From an uncultured Gemmatimonadales bacterium (GTDB taxonomy: Bacteria; Gemmatimonadota; Gemmatimonadetes; Gemmatimonadales; GWC2-71-9), in assembly GCA_963795085.1 (NCBI GenBank), contig CAWCFX010000006.1:320001-384000 (forward strand): a DNA stretch of 64,000 nt. Direction: 5' to 3'. The notes under the pieces were generated by a model. The model worked only from the letters and a program-made list of their open reading frames with translations. It had not been told where the DNA came from and made no database searches. The position numbers and the translations under genes were made by a program. This document shows, in pieces, positions 56,357-64,000 of the stretch. Position 1 is the stretch's first letter. Each line of letters opens with the position of its first letter.

Positions 56357-56680
56357 TCAGCTGTGTTGATCGCGCAGTCGCCCGAGAGTACTGTCGATCA
56401 AGCGGGTCAGCTTGTCCGCGGCGCCATCGACCGCCTGGCCCGTGGTCGCAGCCTGGTGGGTGACCGCGACCGGTTGCCGGCCCTGGAGACGTGCTTCCAT
56501 CATGCAACGGATGTCCTCGGTGCCACTCTTCTCGCTGCTGTTCTCATCGCTCAGGTGCACTTCCACCCGCGTGATCTGATCGCTGAACCGGCTCAACACG
56601 CTCTCCACGGTGGCGCCGACCTCGGCGACGAGCGTTGCATGGCCTTCGATATTGTGATCGGTATTGACCTGGATCTGCAT
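56357..56680 (-). CDS. HPF/RaiA family ribosome-associated protein (short form)
   Basis: MQIQVNTD, ITRVEVHLSDEN, CMMEARL. Confidence 0.88.
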   Translation of the reverse strand: MQIQVNTDHNIEGHATLVAEVGATVESVLSRFSDQITRVEVHLSDENSSEKSGTEDIRCMMEARLQGRQPVAVTHQAATTGQAVDGAADKLTRLIDSTLGRLRDQHS

Positions 56681-56818
56681 ATTGGTCTCTGGTTGTGAGA
56701 ATGAGGACTCACTGCCCCCAAGTGGCCACGTCGATGGCCATGGCTGGAAATGACAACCGAAACGTCAGCCATGCAAGGCTGCGTTACACGTGCGGGCTGG
56801 ATGGTCCATCCGCCGGGG

Positions 56819-57283
56819 CTAGCGAGCCTGTTCTCCCCCCGACTCCAGGGCCTGGATCAGCGCTTTCATCTCCCCGATTTCCCGGACCTGGGCTGCCACG
56901 ATGTCATCGGCCAGTTTCCGGACCCGCGGGTCGGAGATATGGGCGCGGGTACTGGTCAGGATCGCGATCGAGTGGTGGGGAATCATCGCTTTCATGTACG
57001 AGACGTCTTCCACCGTCTCCTGGCCGCGCACCAGCCAGAGCGCCAGGAAGAATACGAGCGCGCTGCCGGCGATAATGCCGGTATTTATCCGCCGGTCGGT
57101 GTACATCTTCAGCATGAACAGCAGCATGACCGCCGCCATGACCGCGCCCATCAGGAGCGCCATGTAGGCCCGGGTCTCGCTGAAGAAGATATGGTCCGCG
57201 GAGTACGTGTTGAGGTACATCAGGAGAAACATGATGCCGGTGGCGGTGGCGATCATGGCAAAGAAGCGTGGATAGGGCTTCAT
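56819..57283 (-). CDS. DUF305 (CopM-like) membrane protein
   Basis: MIPHHSIAI...QVREIGEM; three Met-rich TM helices. Confidence 0.85.
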   Translation of the reverse strand: MKPYPRFFAMIATATGIMFLLMYLNTYSADHIFFSETRAYMALLMGAVMAAVMLLFMLKMYTDRRINTGIIAGSALVFFLALWLVRGQETVEDVSYMKAMIPHHSIAILTSTRAHISDPRVRKLADDIVAAQVREIGEMKALIQALESGGEQAR

Positions 57284-57455
57284 CGGACATCCTCTCTCGA
57301 AAAGAAGCTTGGCACGGGAGTGATGGTCCACGGCACTGCCGCGCGACGACGGAGCCGCTGGACCGGAATGGCTCCGAAGGGTTCCATCATGCTCAATGGG
57401 GATATCAGAGTCTGTGCCCCGGGGCACACCGCGGCGTGATTTCTGGACCCGGGTA

Positions 57456-58421
57456 CTACCCCACGCGGCCGCCAGGGACGTCAGGGATCCCGGTCGCGCC
57501 GATGCCCTTCCGGCGGAGTTGACCCAGTCCCTTCATGCCGGTGAGCGCGATCCCGATGGCCAGGACCGGCAGGACCTGGACGGCCTGGAGGGCCAGCCCG
57601 GCTGCCAGCGCGGAGGAGAGTGGAATGCCGAACTGTTCCATCACCAGGATCATCGAGCCCTGGAGTACCCCGACATTGCCGGGGGTGAGGCGAAGGAGTC
57701 CCGCGGCGTTGGCCGCGACGAGGGCGCTCAGCGAAATCGAGATATCGACCGGGATATGGGTCGCCGCGATGGTCCAGTGGAATGCCGCCCACTGCAGGAG
57801 CCAGTTGAGGCAGGCCAGCGCGACCGCGGCCACCATCCCGAAGCGATCGGTCGAGGCCACCATTTCGATCAGGGGGCCGCGCCAGCGGCCCAGGTTCCGG
57901 GAGCGAATGCGGTCCCAGGGCAGTCGCCGGTACCCGAGAAACACGGCACCGGTCGCCAGGCCGAGGCCGAGACCGATGAGACTGGCGGCGGGAAACGGCG
58001 GCGCGACGATCAGGGCCGCCGCCAGGAAAACAAACAGCGAGACAATCTCCACGAACCGGGCCAGAATCAGGGACCCGCCCGCCGCGGCCATCGGGACCTC
58101 GTCCCGCACCGCCACCATTTTCGCGCGCGCCACGTCCCCGCTGACGGATACCGAAATGCAGGACAGGGCGGCGCCGACGAAGGTGGCGAATTGGACCGTG
58201 ACCAACCGGACCGGCGCCAGCCGCCGCAGGAACACGTGCCACTCGGCGCCCTTGATTGCCAGGGAGACGAGGTGGGCCAGCGCCGCGGCGGCGAGGAGCA
58301 GCCAGTTCGAGGTTTCCAGGGCGGCCAGCGTCGCGGCCCAGGGAAAACCTATTCCGAAATGGATGGCGAACCCAAGGGCAGCCAGTACCAGGCCCGCCAG
58401 TGCCCAGCGGCGCCAGCTCAC
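57456..58421 (-). CDS. Lysylphosphatidylglycerol synthase TM (flippase-like, UPF0104) protein
   Basis: GDVAR and TPGNVGV motifs; about 8 TM helices. Confidence 0.82.
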   Translation of the reverse strand: MSWRRWALAGLVLAALGFAIHFGIGFPWAATLAALETSNWLLLAAAALAHLVSLAIKGAEWHVFLRRLAPVRLVTVQFATFVGAALSCISVSVSGDVARAKMVAVRDEVPMAAAGGSLILARFVEIVSLFVFLAAALIVAPPFPAASLIGLGLGLATGAVFLGYRRLPWDRIRSRNLGRWRGPLIEMVASTDRFGMVAAVALACLNWLLQWAAFHWTIAATHIPVDISISLSALVAANAAGLLRLTPGNVGVLQGSMILVMEQFGIPLSSALAAGLALQAVQVLPVLAIGIALTGMKGLGQLRRKGIGATGIPDVPGGRVG

Positions 58422-58486
58422 CGGGTCGAACGCAGTATGGAGATAAGCACCCGGGCAAGATAATCTCGCTCGCCCGGAGCCCGCGT

Positions 58487-59794
58487 CTAGTGTTTCATCG
58501 TGGACTCCGCCGGCATCACCCGGAGGTAGAGCGCCAGGCCGGCGGGGGTGCGGGTTCCGTAGGCCGCTTCCAGGGCGGCGGGGATCCGGCTCACCCCGAC
58601 TCTGCCCCCAAGCCCGAAGCTGGCCTGCCCAATCCGTCCGATCTCGCGGAGCATGCCCGCAGAAATGCTGTAGATGTCAAAGCCGTCCGCTCCGGCGCCG
58701 GCGACCTGGAGATCCTCGGCATCCTTCTGTACGAAGCTGGCCCGGCCGAAGATGTTGTACTTCCCGGTGTGGAGGTTGGCCTCGAGCACGGCGCTGTGCT
58801 CGAAGGCGTCCTCACCCGCGTGCCGGTTGGCGCCGTAGATGAGGGATGCCGAGAGATGGCCGGTCCGGGTCGGCTTGACGTGCATGATGGACGCGCCGAT
58901 CCGGTCCTGGGAGACGTCGGGCTCCAGTTCCTCGGGTGACTTGAGAAACCCGTACGAGGCGCTCATCGCCCAGGTGGACGACGGGTTGACCGTCAGCCGG
59001 CCGCCGTAGGAGTCCAGGGGGCGAAAGTCGAAATTGGTGCGTTCTTCGTCCGGCTCCCGGCCGTTGAATACGGTGCCTTCCAGCTTCCAGGTCCGGGTGA
59101 AGACCCCGGCCGTCACGACGCCGAAGGTGATGTGGGTGGCATCCTGCCAGTGGTGCGCCAGGGTGGCCAGCGGGTCCCCTTCCGCGGAGGCGCGGTGCAT
59201 GAACGCGACCGGGCCGATCGCCGGCTCGCCCACCGGCGCCAGGTAGAGCGAGACTCCGAGGTGCTTCGACACCGGCCTTTCGTACATGGCGGCGATTTCC
59301 ATGAACAGATCGTGGGGATGCTGGCGGTCCACCAGCGGGCGCCCCCGGTAGGCTTCGCCGGACTGCAGCAGCAGGGGATAGCCGCTCCCGCCCAGGGTGT
59401 AGGGTTCCAGGCTGAGCATGCCGTGGAGATGCAGCAGCCCGCCGCCCAGCGGGCGCATCGCCATGACCATGCCCCAGTTGGTGCTGCCGACCTGGGTGTC
59501 ACCGCGGGGCCCGCCCTGGTGATTGTAGATCAGGAAGGCCTGCCCGTGGACCATCATGCTCCATTGCCCGGCCATCCAGTGCCAGGCGTTCATCGGCGAG
59601 GCATCGGGGAGCCAGCTGGTGCCGGACCCCATGCGGGTATGGGGAATGCCGAGGGGCCCGTCCAGGCCGGGCATCGGGGTGGCGGTCTCGCCCGCCATGT
59701 TGTGTTGTTCATGCTGCGCCCGCAGGGAGCCGGGCAGACCTCCCAGGAGCAGCAACAGCGCCGCCATGCGGGCGGGCGTTGGTGAGATTTTCAC
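58487..59794 (-). CDS. Uncharacterised His/Met-rich outer-membrane beta-barrel-like protein
   Basis: Signal peptide, QHEQHNM, GSGTSWLP, DRQHPHDLFME, HHWQDATH; GTG start with GGAGG. Confidence 0.75.
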   Translation of the reverse strand: MKISPTPARMAALLLLLGGLPGSLRAQHEQHNMAGETATPMPGLDGPLGIPHTRMGSGTSWLPDASPMNAWHWMAGQWSMMVHGQAFLIYNHQGGPRGDTQVGSTNWGMVMAMRPLGGGLLHLHGMLSLEPYTLGGSGYPLLLQSGEAYRGRPLVDRQHPHDLFMEIAAMYERPVSKHLGVSLYLAPVGEPAIGPVAFMHRASAEGDPLATLAHHWQDATHITFGVVTAGVFTRTWKLEGTVFNGREPDEERTNFDFRPLDSYGGRLTVNPSSTWAMSASYGFLKSPEELEPDVSQDRIGASIMHVKPTRTGHLSASLIYGANRHAGEDAFEHSAVLEANLHTGKYNIFGRASFVQKDAEDLQVAGAGADGFDIYSISAGMLREIGRIGQASFGLGGRVGVSRIPAALEAAYGTRTPAGLALYLRVMPAESTMKH

Positions 59795-59796
59795 AG

Positions 59797-59848
59797 GACC
59801 CTCCAGACCGAAGTTGAACGAAGAACGCGAGGCTCGATCAGGAGAGTC
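59797..59848 (-). promoter_or_regulatory. SD-sequestering stem-loop overlapping the leader ORF stop
   Basis: GACTCTCC-T-GATCGAG pairs with TTCGGTC-T-GGAGGGTC. Confidence 0.65.
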
Positions 59849-60173
59849 GTTGAGGTGGCGGCGAGAGTGGCGGGATATGGTGGGATATCAGCACCCGGAC
59901 CGGTGTGGCAATCCGGGCTGGCCCCGGCAGGGCTGCCGGGGCCGGCGTCGCAGCACCGACGGCGGGGGAGTGCGCGAGACATCCGGCATGGCCGGCGCAT
60001 TCCACCGGCGGACAGTGCTGGCAGTCATCCGGAGCCGGGGCCACCATGCCCTGGCCGGCGCCGGAGTCCGAATGCCCCGAATGGGGCGATGCCGCCTGGA
60101 CACAATGGTCGGCGGCCGCAGCCGGCAAGGGCGGCCACGAAAGGAGGCTCAGCAGGAGCATGACCAGCTTCAT
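59838..60173 (-). CDS. Secreted Cys/His-rich leader protein with polyproline C-terminus (CutF/CruR/DUF2946-like)
   Basis: Signal peptide, CQHCPPVECAGHAGC, ends PPLSPPPQRLS; ATGA overlap with csoR. Confidence 0.7.
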   Translation of the reverse strand: MKLVMLLLSLLSWPPLPAAAADHCVQAASPHSGHSDSGAGQGMVAPAPDDCQHCPPVECAGHAGCLAHSPAVGAATPAPAALPGPARIATPVRVLISHHIPPLSPPPQRLS

Positions 60174-60478
60174 CGGGTGTTCTTGTACATCAGGTCCACC
60201 AGCTCGTCATACATCGACTCGGCTTCCTCGTTCCCGACCCGGATGGCCGAGGTGGCGCAGTGCTTGAGATGGTTGCGCAACAACTCCCGGCCGACCGCCC
60301 GGAGCGCTTCCTGGACCGAGCTGATCTGGGTCAGGATGTCGGCGCAGTAGCGGTCCTCCTCTACCATCTTTTGCAGCCCCCGGACCTGGCCTTCGATCCG
60401 GCGCAGCCGCTTCAGATTCCGGTCGCGGAGATCTGGTTCAACGGCGACGGCATGGCGGGGTTCAGGGGTGCTTTTCAT
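60170..60478 (-). CDS. csoR: CsoR family metal-sensing repressor
   Basis: RLRRIEGQVRG, RYCADIL, HLKHC (C-H-C Cu(I) ligand pattern). Confidence 0.93.
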   Translation of the reverse strand: MKSTPEPRHAVAVEPDLRDRNLKRLRRIEGQVRGLQKMVEEDRYCADILTQISSVQEALRAVGRELLRNHLKHCATSAIRVGNEEAESMYDELVDLMYKNTR

Positions 60479-60584
60479 GCAACGCCTCCTGGTGCCCATC
60501 AGGAGCGACGGGCGTTGGTAGTGTCCTTGTTCCTCGTTCCGAGGCGCCTGCCCCACCCACCCGGTTTGCGCCCATCTCCATCTC

Positions 60585-60826
60585 GGCGCCTCGAACTTCG
60601 ACGTCCGACGGCGCCTGACGCTCGCACCCGGTTGTGCGCGCGTATCCACCGCGTCGCCTCAACTCTCCGAGGCGCATTAACGCAGAGGGCGCCGGGGAAA
60701 ATCACGAGATCGCAAGGCTACAAAATCATCTTCTGCCATTCTGCGATCTCTCAGTCGGTTCAGCGCTCTCGGCGTTAAGGCGCCTCGGACTTCGACGGTC
60801 CGGTGGTGCCTGACGCACGCACCCCG
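60585..60826. repeat. REP/BIME-like mosaic: two ~47-nt palindromic direct repeats flanking a ~100-nt inverted repeat
   Basis: Copies at 60585-60630 and 60779-60825; TTAACGC...GCGTTAA at 60677-60778. Confidence 0.7.
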
Positions 60827-60836
60827 AAGAAAAGCA

Positions 60837-63200
60837 TCAAGCCTGGCTCGCCTTCAACCGCCGCAACCGCAGGCTGTTCCCCACCACGCTGACGCTGCTG
60901 AACGCCATTGCGGCGCTGGCCAGAATGGGACTCAGCAGCAGCCCGAACGCAGGGTAGAGGATACCGGCGGCCACCGGGATCCCCACCACGTTGTAGATGA
61001 AGGCCCAGAACAGGTTCTGCTTCATGGTCCGCATGCTGCGCCGGGACAAGTGAATGGCCCGGACCACGCCGGCCACGTCCGGCCGCATCAGGGTGATGTC
61101 GCTCGCCTCCCGCGCGACGTCCGTCCCGCTGCCCATGGCGATCCCCACGTCCGCCTGGGCCAGCGCGGGCCCATCGTTGATACCGTCGCCCACCATCGCC
61201 ACGACCTCGCCCCGCTCCTGGCGACGCTTGATCTCGGCGACTTTGCCCTCCGGCGTGACCCCGGCCACGACCTGCTCCACTCCGGCTTCCCGGGCGATGG
61301 CGCGGGCCGTTCGCTCGTTGTCTCCGGTGACGATGAGGGTCTTGAGCCCGAGCTGCTGGAGGCGGGCAATGGCCTCCCGGCTACCCGGCTTGATGGGGTC
61401 CGCCACCGCGATGAGCGCGGCCAGCGACCCGTTCAGATTGACGTACATGGGAGTCTTCCCCTCATCCGCCAGCCGTTCCCAGTCCGCCCGTGCCTCCTCC
61501 ACGGCGACGCCGTATTCGGCCATCAGGCCGGCGTTTCCCACCGCCATGGCCACACCGGACACGATGCCGGTGGCTCCCTGCCCGGTGACCGAGTTGAAGT
61601 TCTCCGGTTCCGCCAGCGGCAGGCTCCGCTTCTCAGCCTCCGCCACGACGGCGGACGCAAGCGGGTGCTCGGAACGGGATTCCAGCGAGGCGACCAGCTC
61701 GAGCACCCGGTTCTCGGTCCACGCCGCACCACGCACCAGGATATCGGTGACGGCAGGTTTCCCCTCGGTCACCGTCCCGGTCTTGTCCAGCACGACCGTG
61801 GTCAGGGAACCGGCCCGCTGCAGGGCCTCGCCGCCCTTGATCAGGATGCCCCACTGGGCGCCCTTGCCGGTCGCCACCATGACCGCGGTGGGAACGGCCA
61901 GGCCCATCGCGCAGGGACAGGCGATGATGAGTACCGCCACGGCCGCCGCGAACCCGCGCACCAGCGGCGCTGTGGGGTCGAGCAGGTACCACGCGACGAA
62001 CGTCGCGATGGCGATCGAAATCACCACCGGCACGAACACCGCGCTGATCCGGTCGGCCAGGCCCTGGATCGGGGCCCGGCTGCCCTGGGCTTCCCGCATC
62101 AGCTTCACGATCCGCTGGATGGTGCTGTCGGCGCCGAGGGCGACGACCCGGACCTGGAGCGCCCCGGTGCTGTTCATGGTTCCACCCGCGACCCGGTCGC
62201 CCGGACCCTTGGCCACCGGCATGGACTCCCCGCTCAGCATGCTCTCGTCCACGGCGCTGCCGCCGGTGGTCACCTCGCCGTCCACCGGGACCCGTTCACC
62301 CGGGCGGATCACCACCACGTCCTCCAGGCGGACCTCGTCGATCGGCAGATCGCGCTCCTGCCCGTCCCGGATCACCCGGGCCGTCCCCGGCTGCAGCGCG
62401 ATCAGGCCGCGCAGCGCCACCGAGGTCTGCCGCTTGGCCCGGGCTTCCATCGCGTTGCCCACCAGGATGAGGCCGATAATGATCACGATGGCCTCGTAGT
62501 ACACGTCCGGCGGCACCCCATGGGAGAGAAAGAACCCGGGGAAAAAGGTGGCGGCCAGGGAGAAGACAAAGGCCGCCCCGGTTCCCACCGCGATCAGCGT
62601 GTTCATGTCGGCGGCATGATGGCGGAAGGCGTTCCAAGCACGAGTGTAGAAATGCCGGCCGGCCCAGCCCATGATGACCAGCGTGATCGTAAGCAGGACC
62701 CCCAGGAGGACGCTGCGATCCAGCGCGTAGAGCCAGGGAAGGGCCCGCTCCAGCGGTGGAGTCAGGCTGTGCATGGCCCACCGCATGAAGGGGTCGCTGG
62801 TGGCGGCACCGTGCTCGCCGCCCGCCATGAGCGGCATGGAGAAGAGCATGGCGATGGCTGCCGCCACCAGGCTCACCACCGCCTTCAGCCGGTATTCCCG
62901 GAACTCCTCCTGCTGCGCCAGGTCGTGCGCCTCCTGGTCCTCCACCGCGGTCCGGCCTTCGACCGGCAGCTCGGCACCATACCCGGTGGCCTTCACCGCC
63001 TCTACCAGCCGGTCAGGCGAGGTCGTCTCGGGATCAAAGGTGATGGTGGCGTTGGAGGTCATCAGGTTGACCGTCGCGTCCGCGACCCCGGGCGTGCGGA
63101 CCAGCGCCTGCTGCACGTGAGCCTGGCACCCGGCGCAGGTCATCCCGCTGACGGGGAGCGTCACCGTAGCCGGCGGTTTCTTCGTCTCAGTTGGCATCAT
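60837..63200 (-). CDS. copA: Copper-translocating P1B-type ATPase
   Basis: GMTCAGC HMA domain, CPC, DKTGT, SEHP, GDGIND, YN and MAFSS motifs. Confidence 0.96.
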
Positions 63201-63578
63201 TCACTCCACGATGAGCTTGCCCCGCAGCATGCTCATGCCACAGGTAAACTCAAAGGTGCCCGGCGTGTCCGGAGTGAACTCAACGGCGGTCTGCTGGTAT
63301 GCCGGGAGAAACTTGCGGATGCCGAAATCGGGGAAAACGATCTCTTCGCTGCAGCTGGACGTTTCCTGGCGGTCAAAGGTCAGCCGAACCGGCTGGCCCT
63401 GCTTCACGCGGATCACGGCGGGATCGTACCCGCCAAGCACGGCAATCGTGGCGCGCTGGATACCGCGGTCCCCCGCCTCGGCAACCGCCGCCTTGCGCCC
63501 CGCCAGGAAGAAGTACCAGTTGACCCACAGAATGGCGGCGGCGCCGCCGATCAGAACCATCCATTGTATCCCTGTCAT
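63201..63578 (-). CDS. Membrane-anchored cupredoxin domain protein (CupA-like)
   Basis: GGYDP, SSCSEEI, FTCGMSM. Confidence 0.9.
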   Translation of the reverse strand: MTGIQWMVLIGGAAAILWVNWYFFLAGRKAAVAEAGDRGIQRATIAVLGGYDPAVIRVKQGQPVRLTFDRQETSSCSEEIVFPDFGIRKFLPAYQQTAVEFTPDTPGTFEFTCGMSMLRGKLIVE

Positions 63579-63588
63579 GGCCTGCTCC

Positions 63589-63636
63589 TATACCCTGGTG
63601 GGGTATATACTACGATACCCCCACCCCCTATGTCAA
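63589..63636 (-). promoter_or_regulatory. CsoR operator(s) and promoter of the copper operon
   Basis: TATACCC-N5-GGGTATA palindrome; second C-tract site 63615-63631; TTGACA-N18-TAGTAT on minus strand. Confidence 0.8.
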
Positions 63637-63769
63637 GCCCAGCTTCAAGACCCCGGCCCCGCACCCCACCCAGCGTGAGGAGCGTCACTCCGCTCTGCCG
63701 AGGACTCGTGCATTGTCTGGAACAGCAAGCCCGAACTCCAGATGGCCCTCAACCACTTGGCGAGGCTCT

Positions 63770-64000
63770 ATGCCCAGGAAAGACCAGGACGAGAATACTT
63801 CCGCACCCTTTGTCCGGATGGATCCGGAGCAGCGCAGGCAGTTCGAAGAGGGAGGTCCGCTCAAGCACGAGGACGACCGGGTGACCGAAGTGGAGTTCGA
63901 CGCGGATGACCCCCGGGACGAGGACCGCATGGGCCGCCATGCCCAGCCGGAGAGCGAGGAGTTGCGGGAGGAAAAGGCGGCGGAGGTCGATGAGTCGGGG
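63770..64000 (+). CDS. Acidic hypothetical protein, 3'-truncated by window edge
   Basis: GAGG then ATG; open frame MPRKDQDENT...DESG to window end. Confidence 0.55.
   Translation, partial: MPRKDQDENTSAPFVRMDPEQRRQFEEGGPLKHEDDRVTEVEFDADDPRDEDRMGRHAQPESEELREEKAAEVDESG

Follow-up and report, generated by a model that had tools for sequence, protein, structure and literature searches.

The stretch of 64,000 nucleotides (nt) analysed here (the window, whose numbering is used for all coordinates) spans positions 320,001 to 384,000 of contig CAWCFX010000006.1 from an uncultured Gemmatimonadales bacterium (assembly GCA_963795085.1) and contains a copper cluster in which a small open reading frame (ORF) of 111 residues is placed between csoR, a gene of the copper-sensing transcriptional repressor family (60170..60478), and a gene encoding a porin-like outer-membrane β-barrel (58487..59794). 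The genes of the cluster, from a cupredoxin-like protein and the copper-exporting P-type ATPase CopA, through CsoR, the ORF (59838..60173) and the barrel, to two downstream membrane proteins, the second with a DUF305/CopM-like domain, all lie on the minus strand. The barrel protein has 435 residues, a GTG start and a signal peptide. The ATG of the ORF overlaps the stop codon of csoR by 4 nt (ATGA, 60170-60173) and a gap of 43 nt separates its end from the barrel gene. The ORF call, its motifs and the conservation of its family indicate that the 111-residue ORF is a genuine gene, encoding what appears to be a regulatory leader peptide.

The leader begins with MKLVMLLLSLLSWPPLPAAAAD and displays, by eye, an export-signal-like N-terminus over residues 1-22 (60108..60173), comprising Lys2, an 11-residue hydrophobic core and an AAA/AD segment; all 11 members of its subtype (subtype A, alignment A2) have hydrophobic residues there in the alignment. 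Its cysteines occupy positions 24, 51, 54, 59 and 65 and its histidines positions 23, 31, 34, 53, 62, 68, 98 and 99. The last four cysteines are arranged as CQHC-x4(PPVE)-C-x5(AGHAG)-C, and the resulting Cys/His cluster, C51-Q-H53-C54-P-P-V-E-C59-x5-C65 (59979..60023), coincides with invariant columns of A2, as does Cys24 of the upstream His23-Cys24 pair (60102-60107). The tail reads PPLSPPPQRLS followed by TGA, in which the PPP of residues 105-107 (59853..59861), also invariant in A2, is a putative translation-pause site and is followed by QRLS and the stop codon. A single-sequence search of a protein database with the leader returned no match, its own sequence included, and because of the latter the leader is probably not called as a gene in the databases.

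RNA folding places the end of the leader in a hairpin with the ribosome-binding region of the barrel gene. The 5' arm (59833..59848, minus strand), acting as an anti-Shine-Dalgarno, covers the last 2.7 leader codons, the stop codon (59840-59838) and 5 nt beyond, and reads GACUCUCC-U-GAUCGAG; the 3' arm (59797..59812, minus strand) reads UUCGGUC-U-GGAGGGUC and contains the Shine-Dalgarno (SD) sequence GGAGG (59804-59800), 5 nt ahead of the barrel GTG at 59794. The stem consists of 8 + 7 pairs (15 base pairs), three of them G-U, with a U/U mismatch between the two blocks, and closes a loop of 20 nt. At this locus the barrel SD pairs with the 3' window of the leader with a probability of 1.0, and the duplex between the leader 3' end and the SD window, at -23.5 kcal/mol, is equalled in 1.5% of 200 dinucleotide-shuffled sequences and in 3.6% of the other windows of the locus. 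A first-pass annotation of the window, made from the letters and a list of ORFs, had described this arrangement: the ORF with its hydrophobic N-terminus, CQHC-x4-C-x5-C motif, histidines and PPLSPPPQRLS tail, the 15-base-pair stem between the leader end with its stop codon and the SD arm, and the GGAGG 5 nt before the GTG of a His/Met-rich barrel-like gene that is neither a multicopper oxidase nor an obvious TonB receptor. All of these elements were found as it had them.

The barrel protein was matched by no Pfam or NCBIfam family and, in a Pfam scan at E ≤ 0.1, by no model, the CopB family included. It is nevertheless far from isolated, its homologues filling at least 7993 clusters at 90% (8000 candidates were scored), of which the named ones are 'hypothetical protein' entries from Gemmatimonadales; one of the 120 homologues listed carries PF07642 (BBP2). 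The gene is present as a single copy in its own genome, in 11 of 60 relatives and in 77 of 401 genomes of the phylum (a tally that takes in G000 and G212), and also in metagenome-assembled genomes of Acidobacteriota, and a search for related loci yielded nine in genome and 11 in metagenome collections, none of them above 61% identity. The protein has 21 His, 20 Met and no Cys in its 435 residues, with six His and eight Met within residues 27-110, and homologues display much longer Met-rich N-terminal extensions.

An AlphaFold2 model of the barrel, computed from a 34-sequence alignment (predicted local distance difference test, pLDDT, 76; predicted template-modelling score, pTM, 0.79), is all-β from residue 70. 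DSSP assigns 17 strands, or 16 when the first two (70-75 and 78-93) are counted as one, and short turns alternate with long loops, such as 128-165, 190-222, which includes a short helix (202-205), and 244-261. General porins have the same strand, turn and loop topology, with loop 3 constricting the pore. Foldseek retrieved 244 PDB chains at E ≤ 0.001, headed by general porins (OmpF, Omp32, BpsOmp38) and OprD/Occ channels, the best of these matches having E-values of 8e-9 to 5e-7, query-normalised template-modelling scores of 0.33-0.52 and identities of 6-12%; a sequence search of the PDB with the barrel profile gave no match at E ≤ 10. The fold class is thus predicted to be that of a 16-strand porin, the strand and loop order being compatible with a 16-strand barrel whose loops 2 and 3 are long, as in these best structural neighbours. 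Unlike them, the barrel contains invariant DRQHPHD, HHWxDxTHI and FNGREPDE motifs and a Met/His-rich N-terminal extension. The invariant columns of alignment A1 (Asp156, Gln158, His159, Pro160, His161; His200, Arg201; His214, His215, Asp218, Thr220, His221; Phe243, Gly245, Arg246, Glu247, Pro248) cluster in the two longest loops and at their edges.

PcoB/CopB proteins are outer-membrane barrels with a Met/His-rich N-terminal region and belong to copper-resistance clusters. Compared with them in general terms, the present protein is alike in barrel type, in its Met/His-rich N-terminus and in its copper cluster, and differs in that its model is larger and porin-like. In the ESM Atlas, all clusters retrieved with the barrel at 0.99 were 'hypothetical' ones of Gemmatimonadota and Acidobacteriota, and a Verrucomicrobiota cluster with a heavy-metal-binding domain (PF19335) at 0.92 is a lead only. 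The fold, the conserved histidines and the linkage to copper ATPases described below are the three features that make a His-lined outer-membrane channel the most likely function of the protein, and its very large, unannotated family is probably copper-related.

The association of leader and barrel was followed through 38 Gemmatimonadota barrel loci, with L050/G212 set aside; L018 and L047 had too little upstream DNA, so that 36 were assessable. An upstream ORF was counted as a leader when it was on the same strand, small, hydrophobic at its N-terminus, had at least three cysteines and ended in PPP or PPPP located 1-5 residues before the stop codon. By these rules, a Cys-motif, PPP-tailed leader lies directly upstream of the barrel gene in 25 of the 36 loci, including L017, in which the ORF is truncated at the contig end, and L048, whose 86-residue ORF is the weakest case.

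Three subtypes of leader are found in Gemmatimonadota. Subtype A, to which the leader of this locus belongs, has the pattern HC...CxHCPxxxCxxxxxC...PPTPPPQxx[AS] (A2, 11 sequences), with Cys24, Cys51, His53, Cys54, Pro55, Cys59, Cys65 and Pro105-Pro107 invariant; subtype B has the pattern ...SYLAPPLSPPPQA (alignment A4) and subtype C the pattern ...CCxAxxxC...APEPPPPKA or PPPRV (alignment A3). The profiles align end to end in hhalign, A with C at 92% (E = 6.6e-7) and A with B at 93% (E = 3.4e-7). The A2 profile retrieved 22 called proteins from a set of 5.8 billion, all unnamed and without a Pfam domain, and, from a library of 1.84 billion representatives, 282 cluster representatives at E ≤ 1e-3, of which 117 reach E ≤ 1e-10.

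In 150 of the 165 leader-family proteins examined, PPP is located inside the last 14 residues, and among the proteins with both motifs the CxxC-to-PPP spacing is 52 residues in 105 of 150 and falls within 51-53 in 144 of these 150, a tightness that is partly circular, the proteins having been retrieved with a profile that contains both motifs. The spacing at this locus, 50 residues, recurs in three other proteins, and exactly four residues follow PPP in 117 of the 150, as they do here. The identity within subtype A is just 21-30%, yet the motif spacing is fixed. Because length is kept where sequence is not, the stretch between the motifs seems to behave as a spacer rather than as a folded domain, and the near-constant four residues after PPP would fit a fixed distance from pause to stem.

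Leader-bearing loci (26) were folded from 45 nt before the leader stop codon to 12 nt past the best-supported barrel start; at the start chosen, three of them have no SD-like motif. In 19 of the 26, the SD pairs with the region from -15 to +12 around the leader stop with a mean probability of at least 0.5, and such pairing occurs in 18 of the 19 loci with a gap of at most 100 nt and a recognisable SD. The short-gap exception is L042, in which the SD pairs with Pro codons further upstream. The last leader codons together with the stop codon form the 5' arm in most short-gap loci, and the SD lies in the 3' arm, as at this locus (CUCUCC-UGA-UCGAG with UUCGGUC-U-GGAGGG), in most of subtype A (CGCC-UAG-UC with GACUAGGAG), in subtype B (CCUCAAGCC-UAA-GUCG with CGACUUUGGCUUGAGG) and in two subtype C loci (CCCAGAGUC-UAG with GACUCUGG). 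At the level of predicted pairing, the architecture of the hairpin is conserved despite its differing sequences.

The duplex energy is better than that of 200 dinucleotide shuffles (p ≤ 0.05) in 14 of 25 loci; compared with other windows of the locus concerned, it is better (p ≤ 0.05) in 12 of the 25. RNAalifold found an eight-pair consensus in nine subtype A sequences, in which two pairs change on both sides when UGA replaces the UAG stop and are compensated in two of the nine, and a 15-pair outer stem with little variation in six subtype B sequences. Two sequence-based checks proposed with the first-pass annotation, a search for Cys/Pro ORFs upstream of barrel homologues and a search for recurring SD-sequestering hairpins, both gave a positive result.

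The genomic surroundings of other barrel genes point to copper. The neighbourhoods (±7 kb) of 18 barrel loci were inspected for ORFs of at least 80 residues with a GC content at third codon positions (GC3) of at least 0.72, and the 137 nearest to the barrel, out of 207 picked, were scanned with Pfam at E ≤ 1e-6. A P-type ATPase follows the barrel directly and on the same strand in four of the 18 loci (L070, L077, L079 and L081), with gaps of about 4-45 nt or an overlap, and another is nearby in L074. All five score above the TIGR01511 copper-ATPase cut-off (574-607 bits against 397), and the leader is present in all five loci (leader loci L042, L065, L049, L043 and L058). Other neighbours are a multicopper oxidase and a DUF305 protein (L071), SCO1 and CtaG (L068) and efflux components (L083 and L076).

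Among the 137 scanned ORFs no CsoR-family protein (PF02583) was found, and for this reason the coupling of the leader to csoR is local to this genome; in the same-genus locus L015 a different gene lies upstream. The first-pass annotation, which had presented the coupling to csoR as part of the system, was accordingly right about the ATGA overlap at this locus, but the arrangement was not seen in the related ones scanned.

The four ATPases that follow the barrel (L070:8317-10488, L077:4840-6906, L079:4745-6853 and L081:8310-10493) have long His-rich N-termini, CP[H/S] rather than CPC, and no HMA domain at E ≤ 1e-6; we take them to resemble CopB-type (P1B-3) pumps.

The anatomy of the leader recalls two regulators known from Proteobacteria. 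CutF of Rhodobacter capsulatus, a DUF2946 member encoded in the cutFOG operon, is described as having a Sec signal, a CxxxC motif, a C-terminal PPP whose stall is relieved by elongation factor P (EF-P) and a stem-loop by which cutO's ribosome-binding site is masked (10.1101/2025.02.05.636593; PMC9973294), and as being degraded after export (PMC9973294). CruR (Bp2923) of Bordetella pertussis is presented as the prototype of DUF2946 (PF11162), with CXXC and RAPP motifs 45 residues apart, and as down-regulating an outer-membrane importer through its Cys motif and C-terminal arrest motif, with a 162-nt intergenic region, Rho-dependent termination, repression of expression by copper and no effect of EF-P (PMC9426467). 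The partners reported for DUF2946 proteins, mostly in Proteobacteria, include TonB receptors, PepSY proteins and others, and the spacing of about 45 residues is kept to within 1-2 residues and impairs regulation when altered (Roy et al., PMC9426467). RAPP/RGPP arrest peptides are covered more generally elsewhere (PMC12992588). Ozturk et al. (2023) list 5,334 rule-filtered CutF-like proteins, most of which come from Pseudomonadota and Bacteroidota; the list was seeded with CutF in jackhmmer, and neighbours were classed by Pfam (OEP, RND, CusF, TonB, PCuAC, HupE, NosZ) (PMC9973294).

Like CutF, the present leader is a small, apparently Sec-exported protein whose mature portion carries a Cys motif and whose C-terminal region contains PPP; a short gap separates it from the next gene, the SD of that gene is shielded by a stem-loop and the context is one of copper detoxification. 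The SD-pairing stem is close enough to be reached by a ribosome located at the Pro motif. Whereas CutF has CxxxC and a Tat-exported multicopper oxidase as target, the leader has CxHC-x4-C-x5-C and a porin-like barrel; unlike in CutF, the stop codon of the leader overlaps with the anti-SD, translation of the leader is coupled to that of csoR and the phylum is Gemmatimonadota. With CruR it shares the upstream position, an export-signal-like N-terminus, CXXC (C51-Q-H-C54, invariant as C-x-H-C in A2), a Pro-containing arrest-like motif near the stop codon and an outer-membrane target in copper homeostasis. In place of the RAPP motif, the 45-residue spacing, the 162-nt gap and Rho, the leader has PPPQ (tail SPPPQRLS, family consensus PPTPPPQ-x-x-[AS], with PPP as in CutF), a ruler of another length (50 residues; most often 52 in the family), a gap of 43 nt and a stem that sequesters the SD. 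By the rules with which Ozturk et al. defined CutF-like clusters, CopL of Xanthomonas/Stenotrophomonas among them, it would pass in having fewer than 150 residues (111), PP in the last 15 residues and a downstream same-strand gene within 1000 nt, and its N-terminal segment resembles a signal by eye; the barrel, lacking a Pfam family, could not be classed in that neighbour scheme.

The most economical explanation of the locus is a CutF-type translational switch placed before a copper-related outer-membrane channel, within a CsoR-controlled unit. The leader would be translated right after csoR, through the ATGA overlap, and exported co-translationally. With the ribosome at PPP, the Cys/His cluster 50 residues back would be just out of the tunnel and translocon, on the periplasmic side; fifty-odd residues are approximately the length that spans exit tunnel and translocon, an argument that has also been made for CutF and CruR. 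Copper bound at the cluster would slow release from the polyproline pause, and the paused ribosome, covering the first bases of the 5' arm, would keep the stem open, leaving GGAGG free and the barrel translated; without metal the leader would be finished quickly, the stem would re-form and barrel expression would stay low. When Pro-Pro occupies the P site and Pro the A site, about twelve nt downstream of the P site are covered by the ribosome, and the stem begins 7 nt beyond the first base of the codon for the third Pro. Given this distance and this footprint, a paused ribosome would invade about the first six outer-stem pairs (the partners of AGGGUC), freeing most of the SD.

Rising cytoplasmic Cu(I) would in addition de-repress transcription through CsoR, so that barrel expression would depend on two copper signals, one cytoplasmic and one periplasmic, and the barrel would let copper pumped to the periplasm by P1B ATPases leave the cell. 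The direction proposed, in which copper turns the barrel on, is suggested by the stem that hides the SD, by the setting next to csoR and copA and by the operons with ATPases. To this switch in full, from leader and pause to stem opening and copper-induced barrel expression, we assign a probability of roughly 0.6; regulatory coupling of leader and barrel via the stem, whatever the ligand and polarity, is likelier than that.

A number of results weigh against such a switch, beginning with its kinship to the known leaders. The leader gave no match to DUF2946 (PF11162; gathering score 23.7 bits) even at E ≤ 10, nor did the model match anything in the leader's own genome at E ≤ 0.01, and a comparison of the A2 profile with nine RAPP-type proteins of the same phylum (A7) gave in hhalign 44.6%, over 20 signal-peptide columns only. 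None of 114 subtype A relatives matches DUF2946 at E ≤ 0.01, and A3 against A7 gave 0.8%; two subtype C relatives come near the PF11162 cut-off (L006 at 23.5 and L031 at 22.8 bits, 0.2-0.9 below). Because the leader fails the DUF2946 hidden Markov model and resembles the RAPP leaders in profile no further than the signal peptide, its link to CutF and CruR is, as an analogy, by architecture only. The CutF/CruR-type leader of the first-pass annotation therefore stands as to its CutF-like anatomy, but not as to membership: on its sequence, the leader appears to represent a separate, unannotated family of soil bacteria that is not a demonstrable member of DUF2946. CruR also illustrates, by analogy, that the same anatomy may go with the opposite copper response.

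The hairpin and its distribution carry further such points. The 111-nt fold (-26.2 kcal/mol, z = -1.44) is equalled by 17 of 200 shuffles, so that by energy the hairpin alone is unexceptional, and it is its recurrence in related loci that raises it above chance. These loci are themselves kin and not independent, and the Pro codons, being C-rich and complementary to GGAGG, inflate chance pairing, a composition that the shuffles keep. Subtype C loci with long gaps (120-480 nt), whose start codons are uncertain, are mostly without an SD stem, so that the mechanism is not universal. No such leader precedes the barrel in 11 of the 36 assessable loci (L022, L026, L040, L045, L054, L059-L062, L066 and L067), which have other genes upstream. 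Among the sequencing runs searched for the locus there was no RNA run, the matches being four DNA matches of small share (one soil study).

A ribosome terminating at the stop codon within the 5' arm would also open the stem, and plain coupling would then explain the hairpin without metal. This is the core of the view that the barrel has in the small protein a stable metal-binding partner, periplasmic or anchored in the membrane, as a chaperone or a plug, and that the hairpin, opened by every terminating ribosome, only couples translation and fixes stoichiometry with no metal-dependent pause. Five conserved cysteines and several histidines could bind metal in a mature protein, and leader and barrel are inherited as a pair, so the view is credible, if unlikely, but the barely conserved sequence between the motifs (21-30% identity) at a fixed length fits a spacer better, the invariant PPTPPPQ-x3-stop tail has no obvious role in a mature protein and CutF itself, as already mentioned, is degraded after export. 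Quite unlikely, too, is a polarity like that of CruR, with copper relieving the pause or otherwise lowering expression and the barrel serving as a pore for copper uptake, shut off whenever the metal is abundant. The importer target of CruR itself, the barrel locus that adjoins the cytochrome-oxidase copper-insertion genes SCO1 and CtaG (L068) and the long intergenic regions of subtype C, which resemble the 162 nt of cruR, speak for such a pore. The pair, however, sits behind csoR and copA, genes that are copper-induced in known systems, and switching translation off while transcription is on would be self-defeating; moreover, the SD is hidden by the stem, as it is in CutF, the 43-nt gap leaves no room for Rho loading and the next gene in the same operon is a copper-exporting-type ATPase in four of 18 loci.

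Sensing of another thiophilic metal (silver, zinc, cadmium or nickel), with the barrel as its channel, is distinctly improbable: the conserved barrel residues are indeed His, Asp and Glu rather than Met or Cys, but all recognisable neighbours are of copper type, namely CsoR, CopA, cupredoxin, the TIGR01511 ATPases and the multicopper oxidase. It would be very surprising if the frame were an accident of high GC content and the hairpin either fortuitous or a matter of mRNA stability, a view for which the GC3 of the leader (0.75 against 0.79-0.90 in the adjoining genes), the empty single-sequence search and the z-score of -1.44 could be invoked. A chance ORF is contradicted by the invariant Cys, His and Pro columns and the fixed spacing over hundreds of proteins and by the position before the barrel, kept in 25 of 36 loci; the 4-nt overlap with csoR also stands against it. 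The hairpin was likewise considered as an intrinsic terminator, and this was ruled out, as no U-run follows the stem and no terminator was called there.

The kind of switch favoured here, with a CutF-type leader acting on the SD of the barrel gene, is already known from the published CutF mechanism. In the literature searched, with the CutF-like list of PMC9973294 outside the comparison, we found no report of a non-DUF2946 leader family with a PPTPPPQ-x3-stop signature and a 52-residue ruler, of its occurrence in Gemmatimonadota, of an anti-SD overlapping the leader's stop codon or of a porin-like target family that is very large, lacks annotation and is linked to copper ATPases. The principle embodied by CutF and CruR, a nascent exported peptide that senses periplasmic copper and stalls its own ribosome, has been demonstrated in two Proteobacteria, and the locus suggests that the same logic may operate in little-studied soil phyla through a leader family missed by domain models and gene callers. 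Its clean C-terminal signature and fixed ruler, which would span ribosome tunnel plus translocon, make it a good test case for the distance of a metal site from the peptidyl-transferase centre.

Beyond the Cus and Pco systems little is understood, to our knowledge, of the outer-membrane step in copper export, and the barrel family is a candidate for this step. A tentative extension, which we hold to be possible but rather doubtful, is that the barrel represents a new class of outer-membrane copper-egress porin, translationally gated by a DUF2946-independent arrest peptide whose 52-residue ruler reads periplasmic copper. In such a 16-strand porin the constriction loops would carry the invariant His/Asp cluster and the N-terminal Met/His segment would be a copper-capturing arm; acting after the P1B copper ATPases, it would explain periplasmic copper clearance in the diderms Gemmatimonadota and Acidobacteriota.

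Small upstream ORFs of other kinds were also observed. Acidobacteriota barrel homologues are preceded by small Cys/His ORFs on the plus strand (L008:2354-2908, L009:2292-2837, L011:2484-2891 and L014:2224-2682), with the conserved C-terminal tails ...PLPPAELRV, ...SPLQLSLRI, ...PPLRTSPLRI and ...DPLSVSLRI; these contain no proline run and may represent a different arrest or end motif. In two leaderless loci (L045:315-1343 and L060:72-1256), the upstream same-strand gene encodes a protein of 340-390 residues that ends in a Cys/His-rich tail (..C.RHC...H..C and ..HC.HHH....C) shortly before the barrel and may be a fused or alternative sensor. Canonical DUF2946-type leaders (CxxC...RAPP plus 3-4 residues) also exist in Gemmatimonadota, above the Pfam cut-off in four of 151 genomes and at E ≤ 0.01 in 21 of 151, with examples at L086:1357-1737:+, L087:1489-1851:- and L094:1462-1812:+ (loci L086-L104).

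Of the remaining genes of the cluster, the first encodes the cupredoxin-like small protein (63201..63578; PF13473 Cupredoxin_1, E = 6e-20) and is followed by copA (60837..63200; PF00122, PF00702 and, for its N-terminal HMA domain, PF00403), whose product scores 605 bits with TIGR01511 against a cut-off of 397 and contains the CPC and DKTGT motifs. CsoR was assigned to the CsoR/RcnR family by PF02583 (E = 2.8e-29; 101.8 bits against a cut-off of 22.8), and its match to the RicR-like NF052430 (E = 7e-28) falls under the family cut-off. Between copA and csoR lie 358 nt of non-coding DNA (60479-60836). No CsoR-operator-like inverted repeat was found upstream of csoR (seed 6, length 10), and Rfam over 58300-61000 gave no RNA family on the hairpin, its one hit being a sub-threshold M23 small RNA on the opposite strand (23.5 against 41.2 bits). 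On the 5' side of csoR a possible 6-base-pair stem with an 8-nt loop, CUCCUG/CAGGAG (60487-60505, minus strand), was seen by eye; it would take in csoR's own AGGAGG Shine-Dalgarno and was not reported by the repeat search at length 10. Upstream of the cupredoxin gene and copA, a promoter-like TTGACA-18-TAGTAT (63607-63636, minus strand) matches 10 of 12 positions and is the only σ70-like match in 56500-64000, weak evidence given that shuffles average 0.8 such matches. Downstream of the barrel are a membrane protein of the LPG_synthase_TM family (57456..58421; PF03706, E = 1.9e-23) and the membrane protein with a C-terminal DUF305/CopM-like domain (56819..57427; PF03713, E = 3.9e-10), which matches NF049983 CopM at E = 3e-11, under the family cut-off. 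A DUF305 protein is thus located near the barrel both at this locus and in L071.

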